Positions 2,562-62,484 of a stretch of DNA of 64,000 nt are shown piece after piece (the first letter of the stretch is position 1; each line of letters starts with the position of its first letter). Made by a program: the position numbers and the translations under genes. Under the pieces are notes generated by a model. That model saw nothing but the letters and a program-made list of their open reading frames with translations, did no database searches and was not told where the DNA came from. Source of the stretch: Bacteroidales bacterium (lineage in GTDB: Bacteria; Bacteroidota; Bacteroidia; Bacteroidales; JAUNSR01); contig JAUNSR010000007.1 of the NCBI GenBank assembly GCA_030539115.1, forward strand, positions 14,929-78,928, in the 5' to 3' direction.

Positions 2562-3405
2562 AAAGATAACATTCTATATTAAGTTTAAGATTAAAGTCAA
2601 TCTTTAGAAATTATGTTGCCTAATAAATTAATTAAGCGACAAAATTCATTTAATTTGAGATATCAAAGAGGATAAATCATGACGCATTTTTATCTTAGTG
2701 TTAAAGATTTAATTATATGGAGATAAATTTATATCGATATAATAAATATAAATTCCCTATTTTCTTAAATAAATACTTATAAGATTAATTTGTAACACTT
2801 GATTTTAATCAATGTTTTTTTTATATGATTTGAGAACCTTTGATAATAACTTTTTTGTTTTATTAATAATGAAATTGAAAAATAGAATTAATTGTAAAAT
2901 AATATAAATAATTGATAATTAGTAAATAACAGTGTGCGATTTAAAGTGGTTTTTATAATTTCTACAACTTCGTTTAGGTTATAATTGCTTTCTTTTTATA
3001 TTGCGAATGAGATGTATGGCATATTACAATAGAGGCATTCAATCATATCGGGCTCATTTTTAAGTTTATTAATTTGTTTTATTAATATGACATCATATGT
3101 ATCTATTAAATAAACGTTATTATAGATATTATCATTATATTTCTTGTTAGTAAAGGACAAACATGAATATAGGCAACACTACCGACAATCGGATGATATG
3201 AAGAGATTATTCGTTTGCAGTGATGGGAAGATATTGGTCACCTATTGCAAAATGAATCGTAGAATCAGACGATATTGAAAGTATAAGTGAACTGAATTAA
3301 ACATACGAGCTAGCCAAGAAGCAATAAAAAATTTTAATTGCGTTTTAGTGAATTCAAATAAAAGCATTTGAGCTTCTGAGCAAAATCGCAACGTGATATA
3401 GCATG

Positions 3406-7667: not shown

Positions 7668-7751
7668 TACGAAGGAGGAGATTCGAACTCCCACACCGCA
7701 ACCGGCACTACCCCCTCAAAGTAGCATGTCTACCTATTCCATCACCTTCGC
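7668..7751 (-). tRNA. tRNA-Leu (anticodon GAG), class II with long variable arm
   Basis: Reverse complement is GCGAAGGTGATGGAATAGGTAGACATGCTACTTTGAGGGGGTAGTGCCGGTTGCGGTGTGGGAGTTCGAATCTCCTCCTTCGTA. Anticodon stem is CTACT/GGTAG and the loop is TTGAGGG. Predicted G1-U72 wobble. No encoded CCA. Confidence 0.85.
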
Positions 7752-7765
7752 AAATTAAATAAAAG

Positions 7766-7849
7766 TACCCAAAACAGGGCTCGAACCTGCACATCCTTTC
7801 GGACACTAGTACCTGAAACTAGCGCGTCTACCTATTTCGCCACTTGGGC
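7766..7849 (-). tRNA. tRNA-Leu (anticodon CAG), class II
   Basis: Reverse complement is GCCCAAGTGGCGAAATAGGTAGACGCGCTAGTTTCAGGTACTAGTGTCCGAAAGGATGTGCAGGTTCGAGCCCTGTTTTGGGTA. Anticodon stem is CTAGT/ACTAG and the loop is TTCAGGT. It also has G-U pairs in the acceptor stem. Confidence 0.85.
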
Positions 7850-7895: not shown

Positions 7896-8306
7896 TAATT
7901 AATTGAAAGACCATTATTTAACAAAGGGAATAGGTAAGTGATTTATAAAAGTCATACAAAAACTCTTTTTGCAGGCTTTCAAAATGATATATCTATCGAT
8001 TTGTTTTACAAATATAAATCAAGTTTTACTATAAAAGCAAGAATATTCTTCTTTTTATAGACAATACTTATGAGATAAATACCTGAAGTATTTAAAAGTT
8101 AAATGCGAATAGGCTTATTTAAATAAAAATTTTTAGTATATATTTTATTTTAATTGTACCATAAATTTATGCATTTTCTCAAATGCAGATTATTATCTCT
8201 TTTTTTGTTATTTATTGTGGTTGGTTTATAAAGAAATAGTCAATTTCCAACCTATTTCCAAGCCATTTGTTAAGTTAATATAAGCTGAATGATAAATTAT
8301 AAACAA

Positions 8307-8402
8307 ATAAAACCGTCATAGCTTATCCAATAACATATGCCATATAAAAGGTATTTAAATGGCGCATTTGCATCTCGGTGTTAAAAATAGATTATATAGA
8401 TG
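8307..8402 (+). repeat. AFSR repeat copy A (diverged); its 3' ATG is the start codon of the phosphatase gene
   Basis: ATAAAACCGTCATAG...AAAAGGTATTTAAATGGCGCATTTGCATCTCGGTGTTAAAAATAGATTATATAG-ATG aligns to the family consensus. Confidence 0.7.
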
Positions 8403-12857: not shown

Positions 12858-14675
12858 ATGAGGACACGAATTAAATCTTTCCTATTAAGATATAGACTTC
12901 TAACTAACTCATTGGAAGAAGTTTTTGGGAAAGCTTTATCTTTGATTTTATTCATTGACAGTATAGCGGTTATAGCACTTATGCTGATTCATCTTGGATA
13001 TGATTTGACTCCCGGTATTAAATATAAGTTTTATGATTTTTATAATCTATCGCTTTTTGTTTTATCACTGGGAGGCATATTTTATTTTCTTGTACAAAAT
13101 CATTCTCAAAAACATTTTTCAAAAGCAGGAAAGCTTGACATTTTTATCCACTCTTTTTTATTGGTTTCATCTATTCTTTATTTTATTATAAAACCTCATA
13201 GAATAGCTGCAATAGATTCTCTCAAATGGATAACAGAATATAATATATTATATATTCTTCTTTTTCTTCTTTCTATTTTCCATGCCTCAGGAGCTATTAT
13301 GCGATTTGCAAATACAAAGCTTCAGCCAGCTCGTTTATTTGCAGGTAGTTTCCTCTCATTTATTCTAATTGGTTCATGGCTTCTTATTCTTCCACATTCT
13401 CTTCAACACCCAATCAGTTATATAGATTCACTCTTTACATCAACAAGTTGTGTTTGTATTACAGGATTGACAGTGGTAAATATTGCCGACACATTTACAG
13501 ATACAGGACGCTTTATTATGCTCATACTTATTCAAATTGGAGGTCTTGGAGTAATAACTTTTACAACATTGTTCAGTCTTTTGGCTATGGGCAAAACAAC
13601 CATTAAAACCAATGTTTTGATAAAAGATATGTTCAATCAAAACAATTTTAATGATGTCTTTAAATTAATGAGGCTAATATTTCTAACAACATTTACTATA
13701 GAAATAATTGGTGCAATATGGCTTTATGAGGCAGCTGCCAATCCCATATTGTTTCCTTTTAAGAGAGCAATTTTTCATTCTATTTCTGCTTTTTGTAATG
13801 CCGGATTCTCTACAATGCCTGATGGTTTAAACACTCCATTTATCAAATACAATTGGGATTTCCTTTTTGCTATATCAATAATAGTAATGCTCGGAAGCAT
13901 AGGTTTTCCAATCTTGAATAATATAAGATTCGGCTTATACTATATCCTTCAAAACATTTTCAAGAAATTCGGATTAAGAAAAAAATATATCCACAGAGCC
14001 AATTTGTTTACATTAAATACAAAAATTGCCGTATGGATGACTATAATTCTTGTTTTTGGTGGTATGGCCATTTTCTATTTTTTAGAATCTTCTTCAATGT
14101 TTAAAACCCTTGATGTTAAAGGCAAATTGACAACTCTATTGTTTCTTGCCACTACACCAAGGTCAGGAGGATTCAATTGTTATTCAATGTCATCAATGGC
14201 TCCATTGTCAGTATTATTAACAATGTTTTTAATGTGGATTGGAGGAGGTCCTCTTTCCACGGGAGGGGGAATAAAGACTACAACATTCGGACTCTCTATG
14301 ATTAGTATTTGGAATATTATGAGAGGTAGAGATAAAGTAATAATTGGAGATAGAACAATTGAGCCATCTTCAATACTACGAGCATCCGCTTTAATTTTTA
14401 TTTCAATGCTGCTCACATCTATAGGAACATTTATTGTTGCTTATTTCGACCCGCAAATTAACTTTCGTGATATAGTTTTTGAAGTTTTATCTGCAATTTC
14501 AACCTGTGGATTAAGCATGGATGTGACTCCTCAGTTATCTGATCCAAGTAGAATAGTTCTTATTGTTCTTATGTTCTGTGGAAGAGTAGGGTTGCTTGTT
14601 ATTTTGGATAGCTTAGTGAGAAACAGCAATGAAAATGATTTTACTTATCCTAAAGCCTATATAGCTGTTGGTTAA
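12858..14675 (+). CDS. trkH: TrkH/KtrB-family potassium uptake membrane protein
   Basis: 605 aa, polytopic, with repeated pore-loop motifs (CITGLTV, NAGFST, RSGGFN, STGGGIKT). Confidence 0.85.
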   Translation: MRTRIKSFLLRYRLLTNSLEEVFGKALSLILFIDSIAVIALMLIHLGYDLTPGIKYKFYDFYNLSLFVLSLGGIFYFLVQNHSQKHFSKAGKLDIFIHSFLLVSSILYFIIKPHRIAAIDSLKWITEYNILYILLFLLSIFHASGAIMRFANTKLQPARLFAGSFLSFILIGSWLLILPHSLQHPISYIDSLFTSTSCVCITGLTVVNIADTFTDTGRFIMLILIQIGGLGVITFTTLFSLLAMGKTTIKTNVLIKDMFNQNNFNDVFKLMRLIFLTTFTIEIIGAIWLYEAAANPILFPFKRAIFHSISAFCNAGFSTMPDGLNTPFIKYNWDFLFAISIIVMLGSIGFPILNNIRFGLYYILQNIFKKFGLRKKYIHRANLFTLNTKIAVWMTIILVFGGMAIFYFLESSSMFKTLDVKGKLTTLLFLATTPRSGGFNCYSMSSMAPLSVLLTMFLMWIGGGPLSTGGGIKTTTFGLSMISIWNIMRGRDKVIIGDRTIEPSSILRASALIFISMLLTSIGTFIVAYFDPQINFRDIVFEVLSAISTCGLSMDVTPQLSDPSRIVLIVLMFCGRVGLLVILDSLVRNSNENDFTYPKAYIAVG

Positions 14676-14753
14676 CTATATCTTAAATAAAGGTATATAA
14701 ATGGCGCATTTGTACCTTAGAGGTAACGGTTATAAAAAAATTATATATAAATG
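14652..14753 (+). repeat. AFSR repeat copy B in the trkH-trkA spacer; its 3' ATG is the trkA start codon
   Basis: 14685-14753 (AAATAAAGGTATATAAATGGCGCATTTGTACCTTAGAGGTAACGGTTATAAAAAAATTATATATAA-ATG) is near-identical to copy F. The 5' part overlaps the trkH stop and is only weakly alignable. Confidence 0.75.
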
Positions 14754-43467: not shown

Positions 43468-43642
43468 ATAGAATAGTTTAATATAACATTAAAATTATAT
43501 ATAATTAATCAATAAATCAATATATATTTATTTATTTTTTGATTATTCCTTGATTTTAATATTTATCAATCAGAAGTTGTAATATAATATTTGGATATTT
43601 ATTGAAATTCATATCAAAAACATATTAATTAAGGATTTACAT

Positions 43643-43785
43643 ATCTATTTAGTAAGTAATTATATATTTGATATTGTTTAAACATGATATTATGATATTA
43701 GCTTAAGATAAACTATCATTTGAAATAATGATATTAGCTTAAGATAAATCAAACATGATATAATGATGTTAGCTTAAGATAAACC
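43643..43785. repeat. iteron-like array: three 35/36-bp tandem units with ATGATATTAGCTTAAGATAAA core plus one inverted degenerate box
   Basis: Units start at 43692, 43728 and 43763, with CTTAAG at 43702, 43738 and 43773. A degenerate opposite-orientation box ATCTATTTAGTAAGTAATT is at 43643-43661. Confidence 0.8.
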
Positions 43786-43806
43786 ATACGCGATTATATA
43801 AAACAA

Positions 43807-45555: not shown

Positions 45556-45625
45556 TGAAACAATATCACAAATAATAGGCAATTAAATATGGTTTATTTG
45601 CCAATTGAATACAAAAATTTTATTT

Positions 45626-47443
45626 ATGAATCAAAATAACTTTTTAATTTCCTCCAAACCAAGATATGAGATTCTTGATGGGCTTCGAGGTGTGGCAGCA
45701 TTAGTTGTTGTTGCATTCCATATCTTAGAAACCTATTCCAAAGGGCCTGCTTATCATGTTATCAATCATGGTTATCTTGGAGTAGACTTTTTTTTCGCTC
45801 TTTCTGGTTTTGTGATTGGTTATGCTTATGATGACCGTTGGAATAGAATGTCGTTAAAAGATTTCTTCAAACGTCGTATTGTTCGATTACATCCATTGGT
45901 AATATTAGGATGTGTTTTTGGTCTTTTTATGTTTTATTTTACTGATTCATCATTCTTCCCATTAGTTAATGAAGCACCCTTATGGAAAGTTTCTATTTTA
46001 TTCATATTAGCTTCTCTAATGATTCCTTCACTTACTAAATGGGATATAAGAGGATGGCAGGAAATGAATGTATTCAATAATCCTACATGGTCTTTGACAT
46101 ATGAATATATTGCAAACATATTGTATGCTCTATTCATTCGTCGTTTCAATACTAAAACACTTGCTTTTTTTGTTTTTTTATTTTCATTGTTTACAATAAA
46201 TCTAACAATGAATATTGATGCTTTGGGAGTATGGAAAACACGAACAAATGAAGCCTTTACAGTTATTGGTGGATGGTCGATGACAATAGACCAAATTATT
46301 ATAGGATTTACACGCCTTTTATATCCTTTCTTTATAGGTTTACTGCTGTCTCGTATTGGTAAACGTATTAAAGTAAAAGCAGGTTTTTGGATTTGTTCCA
46401 TAATTATTTTAATCTCACAGTTTATGCCTCGCATAGGAGGAGAAGAACATCTATGGATGAACGGGCTATATGAAACAATAATTATTTTGTTTGTTTTTCC
46501 TCTTGTTGTAAGCATCGGCGCCGGCAGTGAAGTAAAAGGTAAAACTTCACAATCTCTTTGCAAATTTCTTGGGGAAATATCTTATCCCTTATATATAATG
46601 CACTATCCTTTTGCCTATTTGCAGATGAAATGGGTAAGTGAGCATCAAGATTCTCCTTTATCCATACATGTATTTGTTGGCATCTCTGTATTCTTTCTTG
46701 CAATAGGTGTTTCTTATGCCGCTCTTAGAGTGTATGACATTCCTGTTCGTGAATGGCTTACCCGTAATTGGATAAAAACAAATAAAAATGTCAAAAATGA
46801 TAAACCTGTTATTGCTATGGAATTGTATGATGTAATGGACAAACGTCGCACTTATCGTGACTTTACAGATCGTGAAGTAAGTGATAAAATACTTAAAAGA
46901 GTAATAAATTCAGCTTTTAAAGCTCCTACAAACGACCATCTTCGTCAACTTGAATTTGTTGTTGTTAGAGGTCGAGAGAATATTGGCAAAATAATTGCTC
47001 CTCTTGGAAAGAATATTGATGATTTTAAAAAACTTGTTTTCGAGGTAAATGATTCAGCCGATAAAGATAAAATGGATATGTTTGCAGATGCACTTCCAAA
47101 ACAGCAAAAAATGTTGATGGAGAGTGGACTGCTTATCATACCTTTCTATAGACAAAAACAAACTCCTTTACTTAAACCTTCTGAACAAAGCTCATTAAAT
47201 TATTTTGCCTCTGCATGGTGTGCATTAGAAAATATGTTGCTTGCTGCAACACAAGAGGGATTAGGAAGTGTATTTCATATTCCTGTAAGCGATGAAACGG
47301 ATAAAATAAAGAAGTTGGTAGGAGCTCCTGAAGAGTATGAATTCATATGTCTTCTTACAATCGGATATCCTGCAGAAAATGCTTTTATTCCAAAGCAAAA
47401 GCAAATAAATGTTGAAGATAGGATACATGAGAATGTTTGGTAA
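45626..47443 (+). CDS. fusion protein: acyltransferase family 3 (membrane) N-terminal domain plus nitroreductase C-terminal domain
   Basis: The track ORF begins at a TTG (45605); the first ATG is at 45626 (MNQNNF..). YEILDGLRGVAALVVVAFH plus about 10 TM helices indicate Acyl_transf_3. From about residue 400, YDVMDKRRTYRDF...APTNDHLRQLEFVVV...GYPAEN is nitroreductase-like. Confidence 0.75.
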   Translation: MNQNNFLISSKPRYEILDGLRGVAALVVVAFHILETYSKGPAYHVINHGYLGVDFFFALSGFVIGYAYDDRWNRMSLKDFFKRRIVRLHPLVILGCVFGLFMFYFTDSSFFPLVNEAPLWKVSILFILASLMIPSLTKWDIRGWQEMNVFNNPTWSLTYEYIANILYALFIRRFNTKTLAFFVFLFSLFTINLTMNIDALGVWKTRTNEAFTVIGGWSMTIDQIIIGFTRLLYPFFIGLLLSRIGKRIKVKAGFWICSIIILISQFMPRIGGEEHLWMNGLYETIIILFVFPLVVSIGAGSEVKGKTSQSLCKFLGEISYPLYIMHYPFAYLQMKWVSEHQDSPLSIHVFVGISVFFLAIGVSYAALRVYDIPVREWLTRNWIKTNKNVKNDKPVIAMELYDVMDKRRTYRDFTDREVSDKILKRVINSAFKAPTNDHLRQLEFVVVRGRENIGKIIAPLGKNIDDFKKLVFEVNDSADKDKMDMFADALPKQQKMLMESGLLIIPFYRQKQTPLLKPSEQSSLNYFASAWCALENMLLAATQEGLGSVFHIPVSDETDKIKKLVGAPEEYEFICLLTIGYPAENAFIPKQKQINVEDRIHENVW

Positions 47444-47491
47444 TTGAGAAGATTAATTTATGCTGAATTCAAGTTTTTTTGACAATACGTT

Positions 47492-47595
47492 TTTAAAACG
47501 CCATAACTCACTAAAAGTTGAGATACCCAACAAAAGGTATATTAATGGCGCATTTGTACCTTAGTGTAAAAAATTAAATTATATATAAATTAAAA
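47492..47595 (+). repeat. AFSR repeat copy C (both flanking ATG-type heptamers read TTAAAA)
   Basis: TTTAAAA-CGCCATAACTCACTAAAAGTTGAGATACCCAACAAAAGGTATATTAATGGCGCATTTGTACCTTAGTG..ATTATATATAA-ATTAAAA. It ends 43 nt upstream of the ATG at 47638. Confidence 0.8.
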
Positions 47596-47637
47596 AGGCT
47601 TCTGAACATATTTAAACATAAAATAAAAGCAACTACT

Positions 47638-48606: not shown

Positions 48607-48753
48607 ATGTTTATCTCTACTTTTTATGCTATTGCTAAAGAAAGAGAGGATGAATCATTTCCTTTTAATCATCATCAATTAAAGAGAGAGTGTATTGAAC
48701 TATCAAATGGAGTATTTGCATTTGTAGGTTACAGTTCTTCAAATTTTGGATAA
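48607..48753 (+). pseudogene. N-terminal fragment resembling an MBL-fold hydrolase (truncated)
   Basis: Short ORF MFISTFYAIAKE...IELSNGVFAFVGYSSSNFG ends in a double stop. A +1 shift continues IIKTNHGYILIN, which is MBL-like. The assignment is weak. Confidence 0.3.
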
Positions 48754-48759
48754 TAAAAA

Positions 48760-49185
48760 CTAATCACGGTTATATATTAATTAATGAAGCTAAAAATATA
48801 TCAACTCTGGCAGGAGGAACAAATAAATTTATAAGTGCTGTAAATAAGGCTTTAGATCAAAAAAAATTCTTCCTGCTTAATATTCCCATATTTTTTGCAG
48901 AAAACTTCGATGTATCAATCACAAAATGTTTTTGGCTTAATTAATTATGGAGCTACTTGGGCTCTTATTGAAAACATACTTCTTTCTTCAACAGCAGAGA
49001 ACCTCGGTTGTGCTATTCATGTTCCGGTAGGAAAAGAAGATTCCACCTTTCATTCGCTTCTAAATGTTCCTGATAATTATACTCTTCCGGCTATAATAGG
49101 AATAGGATTCCCGGATGAGAATGCTCAAACGCCGACTCAAGTATCGGCAACGATAGAAGAAAAAGTGCATTGGGAAAAATGGTAA
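48760..49185 (+). pseudogene. nitroreductase C-terminal remnant (frameshifted, lacks the N-terminal two thirds)
   Basis: ORF 48895..49185 (..NYGATWALIENILLSSTAENLGCAIHVPVG...GIGFPDEN...) aligns with the C-terminus of 45626..47443 (..NYFASAWCALENMLLAATQEGLGSVFHIPVS...TIGYPAEN). An upstream piece LLNIPIFFAE, in another frame, aligns with LLIIPFYRQK. Confidence 0.6.
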
Positions 49186-49246
49186 GAGTAAGCAGTGACT
49201 TATTTAAAGATTTTAGAATGAACTGCATTTTAGTCAAATAATTCAT

Positions 49247-49283
49247 AAAAAAGCCATCCCTTTAATAAAAGGATGGCTTTTTT
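49247..49283. terminator. bidirectional rho-independent terminator
   Basis: AAAAAAGCCATCC-N11-GGATGGCTTTTTT. Confidence 0.8.
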
Positions 49284-49294
49284 AAATTAATATT

Positions 49295-49642
49295 TTATTT
49301 AAGATTCTTGGAGGAAATAATCTCTCCCAATGTATAAACCATCTCGGCATCTTCAATCAAAAGATTATTGTTATCGTCTTCATAAAGTTTTATATAGCCA
49401 TCTTCATCTGCCTCATATTCAAGCTCTGTTTTGTCGATTTTGACGAGAGCTTCAGGAGCATCCTCCTCATGGCCTGCTTTAAAAAGGATGGCATCATACA
49501 TAATTAATGTAACCTCATTTGGAGTTATTTTTACATATTTCTTCTGAGTGGAAGGAGTGATTGTTCTTTTTTCCTCTTTCTTTTCACCTGCAATTATCTT
49601 GTCGAAAGACGCATTTTTAATAAGAAGCGTAAGTATTTCCAT
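49295..49642 (-). CDS. ASCH domain-like protein
   Basis: 115 aa. The N-terminal ..ASFDKIIAGEKKEEKR.. pattern is typical of ASCH/PUA-like folds. Confidence 0.45.
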   Translation of the reverse strand: MEILTLLIKNASFDKIIAGEKKEEKRTITPSTQKKYVKITPNEVTLIMYDAILFKAGHEEDAPEALVKIDKTELEYEADEDGYIKLYEDDNNNLLIEDAEMVYTLGEIISSKNLK

Positions 49643-49801
49643 AATTGTAATTTTTTACAAACTTAACCAGAAAAGTTAATTATAAATAGATTTTAGTGTT
49701 TAAATAAAAACGCAATAACTCTCTTAAAGTTGCAATAGTTAAGTAAAAGTAAATTTATGACCCATTTAAGCTTTTGCTAAATTAATAGTTGGACATTATT
49801 A

Positions 49802-50121
49802 TTCATTTGTATATTATTTATTTTCCTAACCATAACTTCTAAGGTGCAAATGCGCCATTTATATACCTTTTGTAAGGTATCTCACCTTTAAGTGAGTTAT
49901 GGCGATTTCATTTGTATATTATTTATTTTCCTAACCATAACTTCTAAGGTACAAATGCGCCATTTATATACCTTTTGTAAGGTATCTCAACTTTAGGTGA
50001 TTTATGGCGATTTCATTTGTATATTATTTATTTTTCTAACCATAACTTCTAAGGTACAAATGCGCCATTTATATACCTTTTGTAAGGTAACTCAACTTTA
50101 GGTGATTTATGGCGATTTCAA
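49802..50121 (-). repeat. AFSR tandem array D: three units of exactly 105 bp
   Basis: TTCATTTGTATATTATTTATTTT starts at 49802, 49907 and 50012. Units are more than 90% identical. The array lies 160 bp upstream of the ASCH gene. Confidence 0.95.
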
Positions 50122-50774: not shown

Positions 50775-50834
50775 TTATAACCGTGTTTATAATAACTCAA
50801 ACTATATATAATAACATAATGATTTTTTATTTGG

Positions 50835-50920
50835 TTTCATTTGTATATATTTTAATTTTTAACACCGAGGTACAATTACACCATTTATATACCTTTTGTT
50901 GGGTATCTTGGCGGTTTTAT
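50835..50920 (-). repeat. AFSR repeat copy E (degenerate, hairpin 1 deleted)
   Basis: In element orientation it reads ATAAAACCGCCAAGATACCCAACAAAAGGTATATAAATGGTGTAATTGTACCTCGGTGTTAAAAATTAAAATATATACAA-ATGAAAC. Confidence 0.65.
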
Positions 50921-50930
50921 TTCAAAAGCT

Positions 50931-52235
50931 TTAATTATCGACTCTTGTGCCGTCACTTTTAATCCAAATGGGAATAGAAGGATCAATACAAGTAACAGGA
51001 AAACGAAGTGTAGTGTCGTAAATAGTCTGCATAAAGTTTGGAGCATATGTAAGACGTTCCTCTTTTGAACACATTTGTTTCTGTGCATCATTTTTACTTG
51101 TAACATTTTGTCCGTTACCTTTTGCCCAGAATGGCTTTTTGGGAGTATTGGCATGATAGAAACCATCCTGTTCAAAACTCATGATATTATAATCTATACT
51201 TCCATACCATTGGCCAGGAACTTTTTCTGTTGCTAAATTACCACCGATAGCAAAATAATTAGGATAATGCTCCATATTGAAATTAATAATTACTACAGGT
51301 TGACGACCGGTATTATCTCCAAAAAGAGGGTAGTTGGCAGAAGCTTCATCACAACAGTTTATTAATGTTATAGGATGAACCCATACACCGCTTGTAAGAG
51401 GATAACAATTGAAAGTAAATCCATACCTGCAAAATACTGAACCAAGATTTGTGCCGTAATAATGTTCTCCTCCAACAGCAAATCCAACTCCAAAAGAGGT
51501 GCAATCAACATATTCGATATTAAATTCCAAACAATTGTTTGAACCCTGAACTCCTCTAACGCCGATACATCCCTCAACACCTAAATGTGGAGTGCTGTTA
51601 ATATCATATCTGTTTTTATCACTGCCTTGCAGGGCACAATGCATTACACGTATTGATTCAAACATAATTCCATCAATACAGACAATATTTTTTTGGTTAT
51701 ACGGAAGAACAATAGCAATGTATCTGAAATCCAAATGAGTTTTTCTGTTTTTCAAACTGCGAATGACTGCATATTGTTGAGTGGAATCCAAGTTGTCATA
51801 ACAGGATTTAGAAACTGTAAATAAAACTCCATTATATTTAAAATCAAGAGGATTGTCACCTAAATGAATATCAATGCTGTTGCAGTCAAAACCTATTAAT
51901 CTGATTTTTGAGTGGACATCATCTTCTCCGGGAATGCCAAGAGCATAGAATGGAGTCCCATCGGTGGTCTCTTGAAAATGATCGAAAATATATACACCTG
52001 CCAAAAATTGAATCTCGCCATAACTGCCCAAGCTGTTAATGGCATTTTGAATTGTTTTTTCATCATTTTTGCCGGTGCATACGATGTCTGCCGATGACTT
52101 GTCGGCATTTGAAGAATTTACTGCTGCTATAACAATTTTATGACATTCTTTAAATAGTTTTTGTTCATCCTTTTGTGAAAATGCAGCAATGTTCACACAG
52201 AATAGGAATAAAATAAGGCTTTCGAGTGTTTTCAT
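50931..52235 (-). CDS. hypothetical secreted protein, possibly right-handed beta-helix (pectate-lyase-fold) protein
   Basis: I place the start at MKTLESLILFLFCVNIAAFSQ (52235). The track's 14-aa N-terminal extension runs into repeat copy F. ..DIVCTGKNDEKTIQNAINSL..GEIQFLAGVY resembles Pectate_lyase_3 N-termini. Confidence 0.45.
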   Translation of the reverse strand: MKTLESLILFLFCVNIAAFSQKDEQKLFKECHKIVIAAVNSSNADKSSADIVCTGKNDEKTIQNAINSLGSYGEIQFLAGVYIFDHFQETTDGTPFYALGIPGEDDVHSKIRLIGFDCNSIDIHLGDNPLDFKYNGVLFTVSKSCYDNLDSTQQYAVIRSLKNRKTHLDFRYIAIVLPYNQKNIVCIDGIMFESIRVMHCALQGSDKNRYDINSTPHLGVEGCIGVRGVQGSNNCLEFNIEYVDCTSFGVGFAVGGEHYYGTNLGSVFCRYGFTFNCYPLTSGVWVHPITLINCCDEASANYPLFGDNTGRQPVVIINFNMEHYPNYFAIGGNLATEKVPGQWYGSIDYNIMSFEQDGFYHANTPKKPFWAKGNGQNVTSKNDAQKQMCSKEERLTYAPNFMQTIYDTTLRFPVTCIDPSIPIWIKSDGTRVDN

Positions 52236-52257
52236 GACTTCTGTAAAGTGTTTGTAT

Positions 52258-52365
52258 ATGAAATCGCCATAACTCACCTAAAGCTGAGATACCCAACTAA
52301 AGGTATATAAATGGCGCATTTGTACCTTAGAGGTAACGGTTAAAAAAAATATATATATACAAATG
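52258..52365 (+). repeat. AFSR repeat copy F (solo, full-length 105-nt unit with ATGAAA at both ends)
   Basis: ATGAAATCGCCATAA-CTCACCTAAAGCTGAG-ATACCCAACTAAAGGTATATAAATGGCGCATTTGTACCTTAGAGGTAACGGTTAAAAAAAATATATATATACAA-ATG. No gene follows it directly. Confidence 0.9.
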
Positions 52366-52541
52366 AAAGAAATAGACAAAAATAATCTCTTTTAGTTTAT
52401 TTCTTGATAATCATTACAATATAATATCAAAGAAAGGAATAAATTTCTTAGTAAAATGATTTTTATGCAAATTCTTATTTATTTGTTTATTTTATGACAA
52501 TAAACCTTCATTATTTAATTTTGATTGTCATTATTATAATA

Positions 52542-52676
52542 TGTCTTAAGTAACATAAATGTGTAACTTAAGTATGTTTGCATACTATCTTAAGTAACAT
52601 ATTAAACTATCTTAAGTAATTTAAACATGTTATTTAAGTCGTACGTTAGTGTATCTTAAGTTGTTTAAATAAATTG
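52542..52676. repeat. iteron-like array: six CTTAAG-centred boxes at exact 22-bp phasing
   Basis: CTTAAG at 52545, 52567, 52589, 52611 and 52655, with TTTAAG at 52633. Conserved core (C)TATCTTAAGTAA with variable 10-12 nt between boxes. Confidence 0.9.
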
Positions 52677-54828: not shown

Positions 54829-54848
54829 AAATTGACTTAAAGATTAAA

Positions 54849-54947
54849 ATGGAAATGCCATAACTCAGCTAAAATTGAGATACACGGCAAAAGGTATATA
54901 AATGGCACATTTATACCGTGATGCTAATAATAAATTATATATAAATG
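54849..54947 (+). repeat. AFSR repeat copy G; its 3' ATG is the start codon of the PatB-like gene
   Basis: ATGGAAATGCCATAA-CTCAGCTAAAATTGAG-ATACACGGCAAAAGGTATATAAATGGCACATTTATACCGTGATGCTAATAATAAATTATATATAA-ATG. Confidence 0.85.
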
Positions 54948-56120
54948 GAGAACTACGATTTTAATAAATATATCGATAGAAAGAACAGTGATTGTGTAAA
55001 GTATGATGCATTGAAACAATTCTATGGAAGAGATGATTTGATTCCTCTTTGGGTTGCTGATATGGACTTTGAAACTCCTGACTTTATCATTGATGCCATC
55101 AAAAAAAGGCTTGAACATCCTATTTTAGGTTATCTTTCAATCCAGGATGGTTACTATCAAAGCATAATTGACTGGTGTGCAAAAATTCATAATTGGGATA
55201 TTAAAAAAGAATGGATTTCATACATTCCCGGCATTGTAAAGGGGGTAGGACTTGTATTGCAGGCTTTTACAAAGCCCGGTGACAAGGTTATTATTCAGCC
55301 TCCGGTTTATCATCCTTTCAGAATAGTTCCTGAATTAAATAAAAGAGAGATTGTTTGGAACAATCTTATATTTGAGAATGGGGAATACAAAATGGATTTT
55401 AAACAACTTGAATCTATAATCACTCCGGATTGTAAAGTTTTGATTCTTTGCAATCCTCATAATCCTGCCGGTATTGTTTGGGATAAAGAAACTCTTATTC
55501 AGCTCGCCAAGATTTGCAAAAAGCATAATATACTTGTCATATCTGACGAGATACATTCTGAAATGGTTCATAAAGGTTTTAAACATACCTCTTTTGCAAC
55601 ATCTTGTAAAGAGGCAGCTGAGAATAGCGTTACATTTATGGCACCATCAAAGACATTTAATATACCGGGGATTGTTAGTTCCTATTCCATTGTTCCCTCT
55701 GATACAATTAGAGAGAAGTTTTATTCTTTTCTTGAGGCTAATGAGTTTGGAGATTCAACGATTTTTGCAGTGACAGCGACAATTGCAGCATATGAAAAGG
55801 GTGAAGCTTGGCGTACTCAAATGATGGAATATGTTGAAGAGAACATCTCTTTTGTAAACGATTATATTTCAAATAATATTAAAGAAATAAAATGTTTTAT
55901 ACCTCAGGCATCCTATTTAATGTGGCTTGATTGCAGAGGATTAAATTTAAATCATGATGAACTTATAGACTTGTTTGTCGATAAAGCTCATTTGGCTTTA
56001 AATGATGGAACTATGTTTGGTCCAGGTGGAGAAGACTTTATGAGAATGAATTTAGGAGCTCCAAGAGTAATTTTAGAAAAAGCTTTAAAACAATTAAAAG
56101 ATGCAGTTTCAGGATTATAA
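54945..56120 (+). CDS. PatB/MalY-type cystathionine beta-lyase (class I/II aminotransferase)
   Basis: DRKNSDCVKYD...LIPLWVADMDFETP N-terminal signature and the SPSKTFNIPG PLP-lysine context. Confidence 0.85.
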   Translation: MENYDFNKYIDRKNSDCVKYDALKQFYGRDDLIPLWVADMDFETPDFIIDAIKKRLEHPILGYLSIQDGYYQSIIDWCAKIHNWDIKKEWISYIPGIVKGVGLVLQAFTKPGDKVIIQPPVYHPFRIVPELNKREIVWNNLIFENGEYKMDFKQLESIITPDCKVLILCNPHNPAGIVWDKETLIQLAKICKKHNILVISDEIHSEMVHKGFKHTSFATSCKEAAENSVTFMAPSKTFNIPGIVSSYSIVPSDTIREKFYSFLEANEFGDSTIFAVTATIAAYEKGEAWRTQMMEYVEENISFVNDYISNNIKEIKCFIPQASYLMWLDCRGLNLNHDELIDLFVDKAHLALNDGTMFGPGGEDFMRMNLGAPRVILEKALKQLKDAVSGL

Positions 56121-59418: not shown

Positions 59419-60339
59419 TTATAAACTGGTTGGAACAAGATAGTTCTTTTTATATTCAATCGGTGAGCATCCGGTAATTTCATGAAAAACTCTTGTAAAA
59501 TGATACCTATTGGCAAAGCCGGTCTTTTCTGTAATCATTTCTATACTATAATTTGTATGCAAAAGAAAAAGACAAGCTTTTTTTATCTTTTTATTTTTAA
59601 TAAATTTCTGAATTGTTATTCCCGTTTCCTCTTTAAATAGCCTTGCAAAGGCATTTGTAGCCATATATGTCATCTGAGCTAATTCTTCATTTGAAATATT
59701 CCTGTCAAGATTGTTTTCAATGAAACTTATAGCTTTTCCCACTCTCTCATCTTTGTAAGAATTATTCCAAATGTTTGAATCCATTTTAAAAAACAATTCT
59801 AATATTAAGGATTGAACAGCCATAAACAAGGAAAAATCTATTTTCTCAGCTTGTTTTGATAGGCTTTTGCAGATAAAATCGACTTTTGTTTTAAGATAAT
59901 CTTCAAGTTCAAAGACAAAAATCTGAGGCTTTATATTATCATAAGGATAACCAACAGTGAAATGAATAAAAAGATGCTCGATAAAATCATCTTTTTTAAA
60001 ATTATTTGTTAGTTCGGAAGAGAGGTCAGAGATTCTTCCACCATTTAAAACATAAGATGACTTAGGTATAGAATGATTGAAAAGATGAGATGAATAGCTT
60101 GTATTTGGTGCTATTAAATAAACATGATTTGGAAGCATCTCATATTCAATATTATCATATTTTATAAATCCACCTTTTTTCGAATTATAATAAACTCTCC
60201 AAAAAGGGAAATCAAGCTGTGGATATTCCCAGTTTTTTAACCACCAATATCTACAACAAAGAAGTTGAAGATTAAACTTAGGAAAATATTGAACTAATTC
60301 AGAAGGATCTCCTTTATATGTCTCTTTATTATCTTTCAC
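59419..60339 (-). CDS. AraC-family transcriptional regulator
   Basis: C-terminal HTH (..MITEKTGFANRYHFTRVFHEITGCSPIEYKK). Divergent from fucI. Confidence 0.85.
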   Translation of the reverse strand: MKDNKETYKGDPSELVQYFPKFNLQLLCCRYWWLKNWEYPQLDFPFWRVYYNSKKGGFIKYDNIEYEMLPNHVYLIAPNTSYSSHLFNHSIPKSSYVLNGGRISDLSSELTNNFKKDDFIEHLFIHFTVGYPYDNIKPQIFVFELEDYLKTKVDFICKSLSKQAEKIDFSLFMAVQSLILELFFKMDSNIWNNSYKDERVGKAISFIENNLDRNISNEELAQMTYMATNAFARLFKEETGITIQKFIKNKKIKKACLFLLHTNYSIEMITEKTGFANRYHFTRVFHEITGCSPIEYKKNYLVPTSL

Positions 60340-60361
60340 AATCTAATGTTTGTTTTAGATA

Positions 60362-60369
60362 CAAATATA
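60362..60369 (-). promoter_or_regulatory. candidate -7 box (TATATTTG on the minus strand) of the AraC gene
   Basis: The + strand reads CAAATATA, 23 nt upstream of the ATG at 60339. Confidence 0.4.
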
Positions 60370-60404
60370 TATGTTTTGGATATTTATATTGCATTATCTC
60401 TCAG

Positions 60405-60412
60405 TAACTTTG
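60405..60412 (+). promoter_or_regulatory. candidate -7 box (TAACTTTG) for fucI
   Basis: The only TAnnTTTG match I found upstream of fucI. It would place both AFSR units inside a 5' leader of about 290 nt. Confidence 0.3.
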
Positions 60413-60520
60413 TCTCAGAAATAAAAAACACAGAATAATATATAGATATATTTTTATTCAAAATAGTTAATTGTCATTTTTAGTGACATAAAATGATTTT
60501 AAAATAAAAACAATATATAA

Positions 60521-60711
60521 CTGCCATAGCTCACCTAAAGGTGAAATACCAAATAAAAGGTATATAAATGGCGCATTTGTACCTTAATGAAAATAATATA
60601 AAAATACACAAATGAAACCGCCATAACTCACCTAAAGGTGAAATACCAAATAAAAGGTATATAAATGGCGCATTTGTACCTTAATGAAAATAATATAAAA
60701 ATACACAAATG
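60521..60711 (+). repeat. AFSR tandem array H: two units of 97 bp; the second unit ends in the fucI start codon
   Basis: The ATGs at 60612 and 60709 are 97 bp apart. The units are identical except at their 5' ends (CTGCCATAGC versus CCGCCATAAC). Confidence 0.95.
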
Positions 60712-62484
60712 AAAAAACATCCTAAAATTGGTATTCGCCCTACAATAGATGGTCGTCAGGGTGCTCTTCAAGTAAGAGAATCTCTTGAAGAACAAACAAT
60801 GAATATGGCTAAATCTGCAGCTAAACTATTCACAGATAATTTAAAATATTCAGATGGTTCTCCAGTTGAAGTCGTAATTTCAGATACAACGATAGGTCGA
60901 GTTGGGGAAGCTGCAGCTTGTGCAGAAAAGTTTAGAAAAGAGGGAGTTGACATAACCTTAACTGTTACTCCTTGCTGGTGTTATGGCTCTGAAACAATGG
61001 ATATGGATAAATTGACAATAAAAGGAGTTTGGGGATTTAATGGAACCGAACGTCCCGGCGCTGTTTATCTTGCTGCTGTTCTTGCGGGGCATGCACAAAA
61101 AGGTCTTCCTGCTTTCGGTATTTATGGACATGATGTTCAAAATGCAGACGATACTTCTATTCCTAATGATGTGCAAGAGAAACTTCTTCGTTTTGGTAGA
61201 GCCGCCATTGCTGTTGCCCAAATGAGAGGACAATCTTATCTTCAGATTGGCTCTATTTGTATGGGGATTGCCGGTTCTATAATAAATCCGGAATTTATTG
61301 AAGAATATCTTGGTATGAGAGTTGAATCGGTTGATGAAGTTGAAATAATTCGTCGCATGACTGAAGGCATATATGATAAAGCCGAATTTGAAAAAGCATT
61401 GGCTTGGACAAAAGAAAAATGTAAAGAAGGTGTCGATAAGAATCCTATAGAATTGCAAAAATCTCCGGAACAAAAAGAGAAAAATTGGGAGTTTGTTGTA
61501 AAGATGATGATAATTATCAAAGATCTTATGCATGGAAATCCTGATCTTCCAAAGGGTTGTGAAGAGGAAAAAATAGGACATAATGCTATTGCTGCAGGTT
61601 TTCAAGGACAAAGACAATGGACAGACTTTTATCCCAATGCTGATTATCCCGAAGCTCTTTTAAACACTTCTTTTGATTGGAATGGAGCAAGAGAACCTTT
61701 TATTTTAGCAACAGAAAATGATACTCTTAATGGATTGGGTATGTTGTTTATGAAGCTACTTACCAATCGTGCTCAGATGTTTGCCGATGTTCGTACTTAT
61801 TGGAGTGGTGATGCTGTAAAGAAAGCAACAGGATATGAAATTGAGGGAAAAGCTAAAGAAGCTGACGGCTTTATTCACTTGATTAATTCAGGAGCTTGTT
61901 GTTTGGATGCTTGTGGAGAAGTAAAAGATGAAAATGGTAATGGTGTGATTAAACCATGGTATGAAATGACCAAGGATGATCAAAATAAAGTAATGGATTC
62001 TGTTGAATGGTGTGCTGCTGATTGTGGCTATTTTAGAGGTGCAGGTTATTCTTCAAGGTTTATTACAAGAGCAGAAATGCCGGCTACTATGATTCGTTTA
62101 AATCTTGTAAAAGGACTTGGCCCAGTTCTACAAATTGCTGAAGGATGGACCATTAATCTTCCGGATAATGTTTCTGATATTCTTTGGAAAAGAACTGATT
62201 ATACTTGGCCTTGTACTTGGTTCGCTCCTCGCATAACAGGAAAAGGCGCTTTTAAATCAGCTTATGATATGATGAATAATTGGGGCGCAAACCATGGCGC
62301 AATTAGTTACGGTCATATAGGAGCTGATTTAATTACTCTTTGTTCTATTCTTCGAATTCCCGTATGTATGCATAATATTGAAGAAAAAGATATTTTCCGT
62401 CCTGCTTCATGGAATGCTTTTGGAATGGATAAAGAGGGACAGGACTATCGTGCATGCAAAAATTATGGACCTTTATATAAATGA
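60709..62484 (+). CDS. fucI: L-fucose isomerase
   Basis: [35 protein letters not shown]... is collinear with E. coli FucI through the C-terminal ..[13 protein letters not shown]. Confidence 0.95.

Follow-up and report, generated by a model that had tools for sequence, protein, structure and literature searches.

MITEs such as the Correia/NEMIS elements of Neisseria and BrickBuilt of Porphyromonas gingivalis (PMC4596501) are short, non-coding, multi-copy and non-autonomous. They have target-site duplications, are insertion-polymorphic and often are co-transcribed with their neighbours, and terminal inverted repeats are the defining test for the class. The pneumococcal BOX and enterobacterial ERIC/IRU repeats are intergenic, roughly 100 bp long, highly structured, transcribed, modular and capable of tandem arrangement. 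Palindrome-associated derivatives of IS200/IS605 and the REP/REPIN-RAYT systems have folded hairpins and no terminal inverted repeats; they are mobilised in trans and insert asymmetrically, in fixed orientation, beside a short specific sequence. Elements of this type abut a fixed 4-5-nt target on one side and carry subterminal hairpins at both ends. Rickettsia palindromic elements (RPEs), which are structured and about 100-150 bp long, insert inside coding sequences, are translated, and survive by preserving the frame or expression of the host gene. Integron attC sites and ORF-less cassettes fold into stem, bulge, stem and variable tip, and they form head-to-tail arrays sharing a short core. 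The dif site has 28 bp in an 11-6-11 arrangement with conserved inner ATAA...TTAT arms.

The stretch of DNA analysed here, in the following called the window, comprises 64,000 nucleotides of an ordinary Bacteroidales chromosome (about 31% G+C; MetH, ClpB, HtpG, RuvC, Def, TrkHA, glycoside hydrolases). It contains several copies of a short repeat. We consider it probable that these copies represent one family of non-autonomous insertion elements, which are just 93-105 bp in size, have no coding capacity and are limited to a narrow lineage of uncultured Bacteroidales.

Copies, anatomy and spread of the repeat

Tandem Repeats Finder describes the array at 49802-50120 by a period of 105, 3.0 copies, 97% matches and 0% indels, and a second array at 60519-60714 by a period of 97 and 2.0 copies, the two units of the latter being identical at 95/97 positions. 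The three 105-bp units match pairwise at 101/105, 99/105 and 103/105 positions. The window has 11 copies of a 28-nt core, AAAGGTATWTWAATGGYRYAWTTRYAYC; the expectation from 100 shuffles is 0.00. A covariance model (R1), built from ten full units and run on the window with filters off, recovered all 11 core-bearing units plus a decayed twelfth, giving 12 units at nine loci, nine of them between 47.5 and 60.7 kb (Table 1). A sequence-only reading of the window had spoken of three exact tandem units and of 12 units at eight loci, ten of them in that interval. The period is indeed exact and free of indels, but the units are 94-98% identical, its listed copies add up to 11, the copy at 2626-2731 was not among them, and ten should read nine. 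All 11 core matches lie where it had placed them, and its consensus and internal palindromes agree with our alignment and fold. That all copies are intergenic likewise stands after correction of two mechanical ORF calls: for the ORF at 50931..52277, the most likely start is ATG 52236 (MKTLES..., signal-peptide-like), and in the copy at 14652 the element-homologous part begins directly after the trkH stop codon at 14675.

Table 1. Repeat units in the window, with the parts of one unit, in window coordinates
Feature	Position	Strand	Basis
Tandem unit 1 of the 105-bp array, nearest the downstream side	49802..49906	-	TRF, core match, fold, R1 114 bits
Unit 1, left repeat ATGAAA	49906-49911	-	alignment/structure used for R1
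Unit 1, P1	49899-49904 with 49853-49858	-	alignment/structure used for R1
Unit 1, P2	49891-49896 with 49881-49886	-	alignment/structure used for R1
Unit 1, P3	49876-49880 with 49863-49867	-	alignment/structure used for R1
Unit 1, conserved 28-nt core	49843-49870	-	core match
Unit 1, P4 (predicted)	49845-49852 with 49804-49811	-	alignment/structure used for R1
Unit 1, terminal ATGAAT	49801-49806	-	alignment
Tandem unit 2	49907..50011	-	101/105 identical to unit 1; TRF, core, R1
Tandem unit 3, 5'-most in element orientation; left repeat decayed to TTGAAA	50012..50121	-	108 bits
Decayed twelfth copy in an ORF-free intergenic stretch	2626..2731	+	R1, 34.7 bits, E = 3e-4 to 8e-4
Single unit; terminal ATG 8400 is the histidine-phosphatase start; left repeat decayed to ATAAAA; P2 degenerate	8303..8402	+	61 bits
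5'-truncated unit (P3 to tail) filling the trkH-trkA spacer; terminal ATG 14751 is the trkA start	14676..14753	+	core, R1
Full unit, 40 nt upstream of a DUF1848 gene; flanks TTTAAA / ATTAAA	47488..47597	+	110 bits
Unit without P2; flanks ATAAAAC / ATGAAAC; tail ATG opens a 12-codon ORF only	50832..50924	-	65 bits
Full 105-bp unit; flanks ATGAAA / ATGAAA; tail ATG 52363 opens a 10-codon ORF only	52254..52371	+	116.5 bits
Full 96-bp unit; flanks ATGGAA / ATGGAG; terminal ATG 54945 is the start of patB (PatB-type C-S lyase)	54845..54953	+	104 bits
Array of 2 x 97 bp, first unit, in the araC-fucI interval; left repeat decayed to ATATAA	60511..60617	+	82 bits
Array of 2 x 97 bp, second unit; L-fucose isomerase starts at its terminal ATG, 60709	60618..60714	+	115 bits

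Alignment and folding give the order of parts in element orientation. The left 6-mer ATGAAA is followed by the 5' arm of P1 (CGCCAT), the P2 hairpin (CTCACC-N4-GGTGAG), the P3 hairpin (ATACC-N8-GGTAT), the junction ATAAA and the 3' arm of P1 (ATGGCG); then come directly CATTTGTA(CC), the tail and the right 6-mer ATGAAA. P1 thus encloses P2 and P3 in a three-way junction, and directly after it stands an almost invariant block, TATATAAATGGCGCATTTGTACC. Each unit consists of two modules, a strongly conserved body of 62 nt and an A/T-rich tail, which varies, is 25-40 nt long and has TATA(C/T)AA as its end. The hairpins are confined to the 5' two-thirds of the element. In a predicted fourth helix, P4, CATTTGTA is able to pair with TACAAATG, which spans the right ATG. 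In the model-fitted alignment of 15 copies, 91% of the cells are paired, versus 25-47% when the partners are slid by 1-3 columns; both sides have changed in 7 of the 25 pairs, and at 54849 P1 is compensated as TGCCAT/ATGGCA. A divergent member from the MAG JAVWAL01 (L010, 20905-21031) keeps P1 and the core and has unrelated hairpins in place of P2 and P3. Terminal inverted repeats are absent: inside the duplication the ends read TCGCCATAAC... and ...TTATATACAA, and the reverse complement of the right end, TTGTATATAA, is unlike the left one.

Two candidate functions of the unit itself were dropped. For a leader peptide starting at the core ATG (MAHLYL...), frame and stop are inconsistent between copies. 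By eye, no Bacteroidetes promoter with the correct spacing of its two motifs (-33 TTTG / -7 TAnnTTTG) is visible within the element; a native promoter-like box of fucK, TATTTTTG, precedes the insertion site in L007 and L010.

The copies cover a range of decay, with internal deletions at 50835 and in L002, 5' truncation at 14652 and general erosion at 2626. The trkH-trkA spacer measures 75 nt in the window, where it holds the truncated copy, versus 18 nt in the syntenic L037. Upstream of fucI in L006, L007 and L010 stands a relic consisting of the tail only (e.g., GTGTAAAAAATAAATTATATACAG-ATG), so that at fucI and trkA the body was lost and the tail kept. Body identity is 81-94%, alike within and between genomes, while orthologous proteins of the element-bearing genomes are only 60-88% identical. 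Something other than descent at a locus keeps the body constant. Tail identity in contrast ranges from 29 to 82% and is locus-specific, tails being identical only within an array. From this it follows that the arrays grew locally, and the alignments show them as later duplications between flanking ATGAAA repeats.

Beyond the window, members of the family occur in at least three Bacteroidales assemblies, namely JAVVPN01, ENA ERZ27277089 and, as the divergent variant, JAVWAL01. Their distribution is patchy, the element being absent from L006, L033, L034 and L036-L039. A GTDB genome scan with a strict core found only the MAG JAVVPN01, with a pattern that would miss the L007- and L010-type variants. 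No similarity to the element was found in phage and plasmid collections or IMG/VR, and two JGI metagenome scans gave nothing, or chance matches without CGCCAT arm and tail. Rfam 15 cmscan returned no match on the whole window at the gathering score, nor on the repeat (47.4-60.8 kb, and the array alone) at E <= 10. Literature searches by accession, sequence and topic retrieved no description of the repeat and no occurrence of its core sequence. The sequence-only reading had proposed a structured, dispersed family rather than a local duplication, without match to any known RNA family, IS or MITE, and on all of these points the fold, the further assemblies and the searches bear it out. It had not noticed that the units always run in the direction of the downstream genes, that their 3' ends are fused to start codons, that 6 bp of the target are duplicated, or that there is evidence for insertion.

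In short-read assemblies of the window's species, a break occurs within the repeat, 24 nt before fucI. The Logan contigs L003-L005 and L008, which are independent short-read assemblies, stop 24-25 nt short of the fucI ATG, and L008 ends there although the locus of the same protein in L007 carries only the tail relic. The tail may by itself be frequent enough as a repeat to cause such breaks.

The surroundings of the units hold some further features. The 8307 unit is closely preceded by two adjacent tRNA genes of about 84 nt each (7668-7849, minus strand; Rfam tRNA, 44-47 bits). In the intergenic DNA ahead of the gene for peptide deformylase, 43623-43787 is a separate tandem repeat with a 35-bp unit in three copies (81% matches) and a 23-bp unit in two copies, unrelated to the element. 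Next to the 105-bp array, short ORFs at 48607-49185 are similar to the protein encoded at 45605-47443 in its C-terminal nitroreductase domain (LGCAIHVPV... vs LGSVFHIPV...), and from this likeness the segment looks like a fragmented paralogue or pseudogene. A hairpin at 49245-49300, downstream of a 115-aa gene, gave sub-threshold Rfam matches to Thr_leader/His_leader (about 26 bits vs cut-offs of 49-55) and is most likely an intrinsic terminator. Finally, TCTTAAGTAAC... occurs three times at 52544-52640, with spacings of 22-44 nt. The 850 nt around these copies, which separate the 52258 unit from the gene of an ArsR-type regulator (53215), are free of ORFs; the copies may represent operators or what is left of a degraded gene.

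Insertion at start codons

At 13 of 13 independent loci, nine in the window and four in other assemblies, the element is co-oriented with the next downstream gene (P = 1.2e-4). At eight of these the terminal ATG (...TATACAA-ATG) is the start of an intact gene: four are in the window, and in other genomes the genes encode a biotin carrier (L001), a lipoprotein (L002), fuculokinase (L007) and GH97 (L010). These downstream genes have no function in common. Against the insertion reading, the other five of the nine loci in the window lack an intact gene start; their copies run into ORFs of 9-12 codons or are followed by no ATG. A MobA-like gene starts about 78 nt beyond the tail ATG of the 50832..50924 unit, and about 850 nt of non-coding DNA follow the 52254..52371 unit. 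Outside the elements, the window contains 264 genic, 59 intergenic and 13 start-codon ATGAA sites. Gene starts hence make up 13/72 of the non-genic ATGAA sites versus 8/13 of the element loci (P = 6e-4), more than the motif alone predicts. In JAVVPN01, an array of at least three units, partly masked by a run of N (L001, 5759-6094 of JAVVPN010000008.1), separates the genes of the gamma-like subunit and the biotin carrier within an operon for methylmalonyl-CoA decarboxylase. Here the element must be transcribed through, or it must carry a promoter.

Only two clean pairs of filled and empty sites are available. For fucK, the syntenic loci were reached via FucI homologues at 87-89% identity. The empty site in L010 and L033, two assemblies of one species, reads ...ACCACATT-ATGAAA-GACATCGC, and the filled site in the close relative L007 reads ...ACCACATA-ATGAAA-TCGCC...(93-bp unit)...ATACAA-ATGAAA-GACATCGC. 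L007 thus differs by an extra 93-bp unit and a second ATGAAA; the strings upstream of fucK are ...AATACCACATT ATGAAAGACATCGC in L010/L033 and ...AATACCACATA ATGAAA TCGCCATAAC...AATAATACAA ATGAAAGACATCGC in L007. The patB pair involves a more distant, syntenic relative: L037 has the empty site ...AAATAAA-ATGGAA-AGATAC, and the window the filled site ...ATTAAA-ATGGAA-atgcc...tatataa-ATGGAG-AACTAC. Target-site duplications, which MITEs also have, are hence present; here they measure 6 bp, ATGAAA at fucK and ATGGAA at patB.

The flanking 6-mers moreover co-vary with the locus (ATGGAA/ATGGAG at patB, TTTAAA/ATTAAA at 47492, ATAAAAC/ATGAAAC at 50835). The 6-mers therefore come from the target, of which about 6 bp are duplicated, and do not belong to the element. 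Judged from these site comparisons, insertion takes place at ATGRAA-like sites, always in the same orientation, and leaves a 6-bp duplication. From its flanks, the 47488..47597 unit evidently did not land on an ATG. Where the target is a start codon, the duplication is two codons long, and the orphaned left ATG hence always reads into an in-frame stop, as ATG AAA TCG CCA TAA or, in two copies, with TAG instead of TAA.

In relatives (L006, L007, L010, L033, L034), the fucose locus has the order araC <-> fucK-MFS-(fucU)-fucI-aldolase. At 59419-62484, the window has only araC, two repeat units and fucI, without fucK, MFS transporter and fucU; no aldolase follows fucI, and a PD40-like gene stands on the opposite strand instead. 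The loss, as read from this gene order, would fit a deletion between an element upstream of fucK and a relic at fucI. In L006, L007, L010 and L033, the 30 nt before fucI (e.g., L010 9975-10000, AAATTAAATTATATACAA-ATG) are almost identical to the tail consensus of the element. We read this tail-like sequence in body-less relatives as the relic of an old insertion, but it could be the source from which the tail originated. Longer PatB and FucI homologues (P0122, P0123, P0007...) were considered as element-encoded extensions and rejected, as they are assembly duplications.

Proposed mechanism and rival explanations

We think it probable that the family consists of insertion elements, whose copies, as the site comparisons show, integrate at ATGRAA-like sites in one orientation and duplicate 6 bp. 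At a start codon, the duplicated DNA would be the ATG plus codon 2, so that the gene keeps an intact start, now behind the unstructured leader of the element. The tail would act as a replacement leader, in line with a predicted accessibility of element-borne starts like that of control genes, and ribosomes starting at the orphaned upstream ATG would be disposed of by the built-in in-frame stop. Insertions are tolerated at start codons and even inside an operon, and the element would be co-transcribed with the gene. Tandem arrays arise after insertion by local duplication between the ATGAAA flanks. Bacteroidales are not known to use Shine-Dalgarno-based initiation.

The conserved body would serve as a recognition module, perhaps folded and single-stranded, for a trans-acting enzyme encoded elsewhere. 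Against the proposal, domains of transposases, recombinases, integrases or reverse transcriptases were not found in the window, nor was a Y1 (HUH) transposase. The window and the compared loci contain no autonomous IS with the same ends, no transposase Pfam matches and no longer autonomous relative. A 6-bp duplication without inverted repeats fits no standard transposase family. More tentatively, and in our estimate rather doubtful, the family may represent a new class of mobile element that recognises translation start sites. Such an element, a three-way junction without inverted repeats, would duplicate ATG and codon 2, install a portable leader, stop translation from the orphaned ATG and so rewire the initiation of arbitrary genes, being moved by a recombinase or an RNA-guided enzyme.

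If confirmed, the proposal would describe a mobile element whose surviving copies stand precisely on start codons, where they replace the native leaders of unrelated genes, including genes inside essential operons. These would be natural leader swaps for the study of Shine-Dalgarno-independent initiation in Bacteroidetes. The integration chemistry, combining a 6-bp duplication, no inverted repeats and a folded recognition module, would lie outside the standard IS families, and the element would account for short-read assembly breaks at gene starts in these genomes. It also appears to be involved in operon erosion, with fucK, the MFS transporter and fucU missing between two element-derived sequences.

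Alternatively, the repeat might be a cis-regulatory leader RNA of the host, for example an RNA thermometer or a three-way junction that binds a protein or ligand, spread by DNA rearrangement, in which P4 pairing of CAUUUGUA with the start region UACAAAUG controls translation. We regard this as unlikely. The permanent sense orientation and the fusion to start codons would suit such an RNA, and a host function could equally account for the conservation of the body across genomes. RNAalifold predicts P4, which shows two compensatory double changes, in the patB copy at 54849 (CATTTATA/TATAAATG, CAUUUAUA/UAUAAAUG) and in L002 (CAUUUGCA/UGCAAAUG, CATTTGCA/TGCAAATG), and on the gene-sense strand G-U cells exceed A-C cells by 20 to 11. 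However, the mean folding energy is −19.3 kcal/mol for the antisense versus −17.7 kcal/mol for the sense strand, and a preference for sense-strand RNA by folding energy was rejected, antisense being slightly better.

Sequestration of the start codon was likewise rejected: the predicted accessibility of element-borne start sites equals that of 27 control genes (0.59 vs 0.54; for the AUG 0.37 vs 0.40). Few unpaired positions are conserved, and an Rfam match is lacking. Against a leader RNA stand furthermore the unrelated downstream genes (fucose isomerase, C-S lyase, TrkA, phosphatase, GH97, biotin carrier, lipoprotein), the near-identical tandem arrays, the insertion polymorphism between close relatives and the loss of the body with retention of the tail at fucI and trkA. 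A riboswitch-like leader in particular fails on the unrelated genes, on its presence or absence between close relatives and on the body loss.

It is quite improbable that the units spread without any dedicated mobility, as leader/start-codon cassettes that gene conversion or microhomology-mediated template switching at ATGAAA copies from gene to gene and that unequal crossing-over amplifies. Passive copying of this kind would agree with units bounded by the same short repeat and with tandem units that share one ATGAAA, and the locus-specific tails within arrays do show local duplication. The loss of fucose genes from the window would fit recombination between the fucK element and a native tail-like fucI start, and no transposase was found in the window. 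Yet 6 bp of homology are very little for many dispersed copies in several genomes, the site repeats ATGGAA and TTAAA differ from the donor repeat, and the body is far better conserved than neutral, passively copied DNA should be.

A site for tyrosine recombinases, either dif/Xer-like (IMEX-type) or a folded integron attC-like site with the units as ORF-less cassettes, can be dismissed as highly improbable, although we take the core ATGGCGCATTT-GTACCT-TGATGTTAAAA to resemble dif sites by eye and although stem, bulge, stem and variable three-way tip, in head-to-tail arrays, recall folded attC. A dif weight matrix of ten sites (eight predicted Bacteroidetes sites from PMC3025954, supplement file 2, and those of E. 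coli and V. cholerae) scored the element at −8 to −35 bits versus +7 to +11 bits for the top matches in the window, which largely refutes a dif/Xer identity; the insertion junctions moreover lie about 70 nt from the dif-like stretch, RYYYAAC/GTTRRRY boxes are absent from the unit ends, no integrase is found in the window, and the copies are dispersed at gene starts and not at one attachment site.

Comparison with known small repeats

With the MITEs of Neisseria and P. gingivalis, the element shares short length, lack of coding capacity, multiple copies, a non-autonomous nature, target-site duplications, insertion polymorphism and, in all likelihood, co-transcription with neighbouring genes. 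Unlike them, it has no terminal inverted repeats, and a parent IS was not found in the window or the compared loci; its 6-bp duplication at ATGRAA comprises start codon and codon 2, and it keeps a fixed orientation to the gene. BOX and ERIC/IRU resemble it in all traits named for them at the outset, but they are not fused to start codons, have no defined target duplication, belong to another phylum and show no sequence similarity to it.

The IS200/IS605-derived and REP/REPIN-RAYT elements are like the repeat in their folded hairpins, in the absence of terminal inverted repeats, in their asymmetric insertion in fixed orientation and, if our proposal is right, in mobilisation in trans. In contrast to the element, whose flanking repeats change with the target at either end (ATGGAA/ATGGAG, TTTAAA/ATTAAA), they produce no target duplication. 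Moreover, both element orientations occur within 3 kb and follow gene direction, not one replication strand. Integron attC sites and ORF-less cassettes agree with the repeat in fold and in head-to-tail arrays sharing a short core; the element, however, lacks the R/L box consensus and an integrase in the window, and is dispersed at many gene starts instead of forming a single array. RPEs are comparable in size and structure and in sparing the expression of the host gene. Whereas they become part of the coding sequence, the element remains ahead of it, restores the start codon and ends any translation that begins at the orphaned ATG. An insertion geometry centred on the start codon is unusual among small non-autonomous bacterial repeats.
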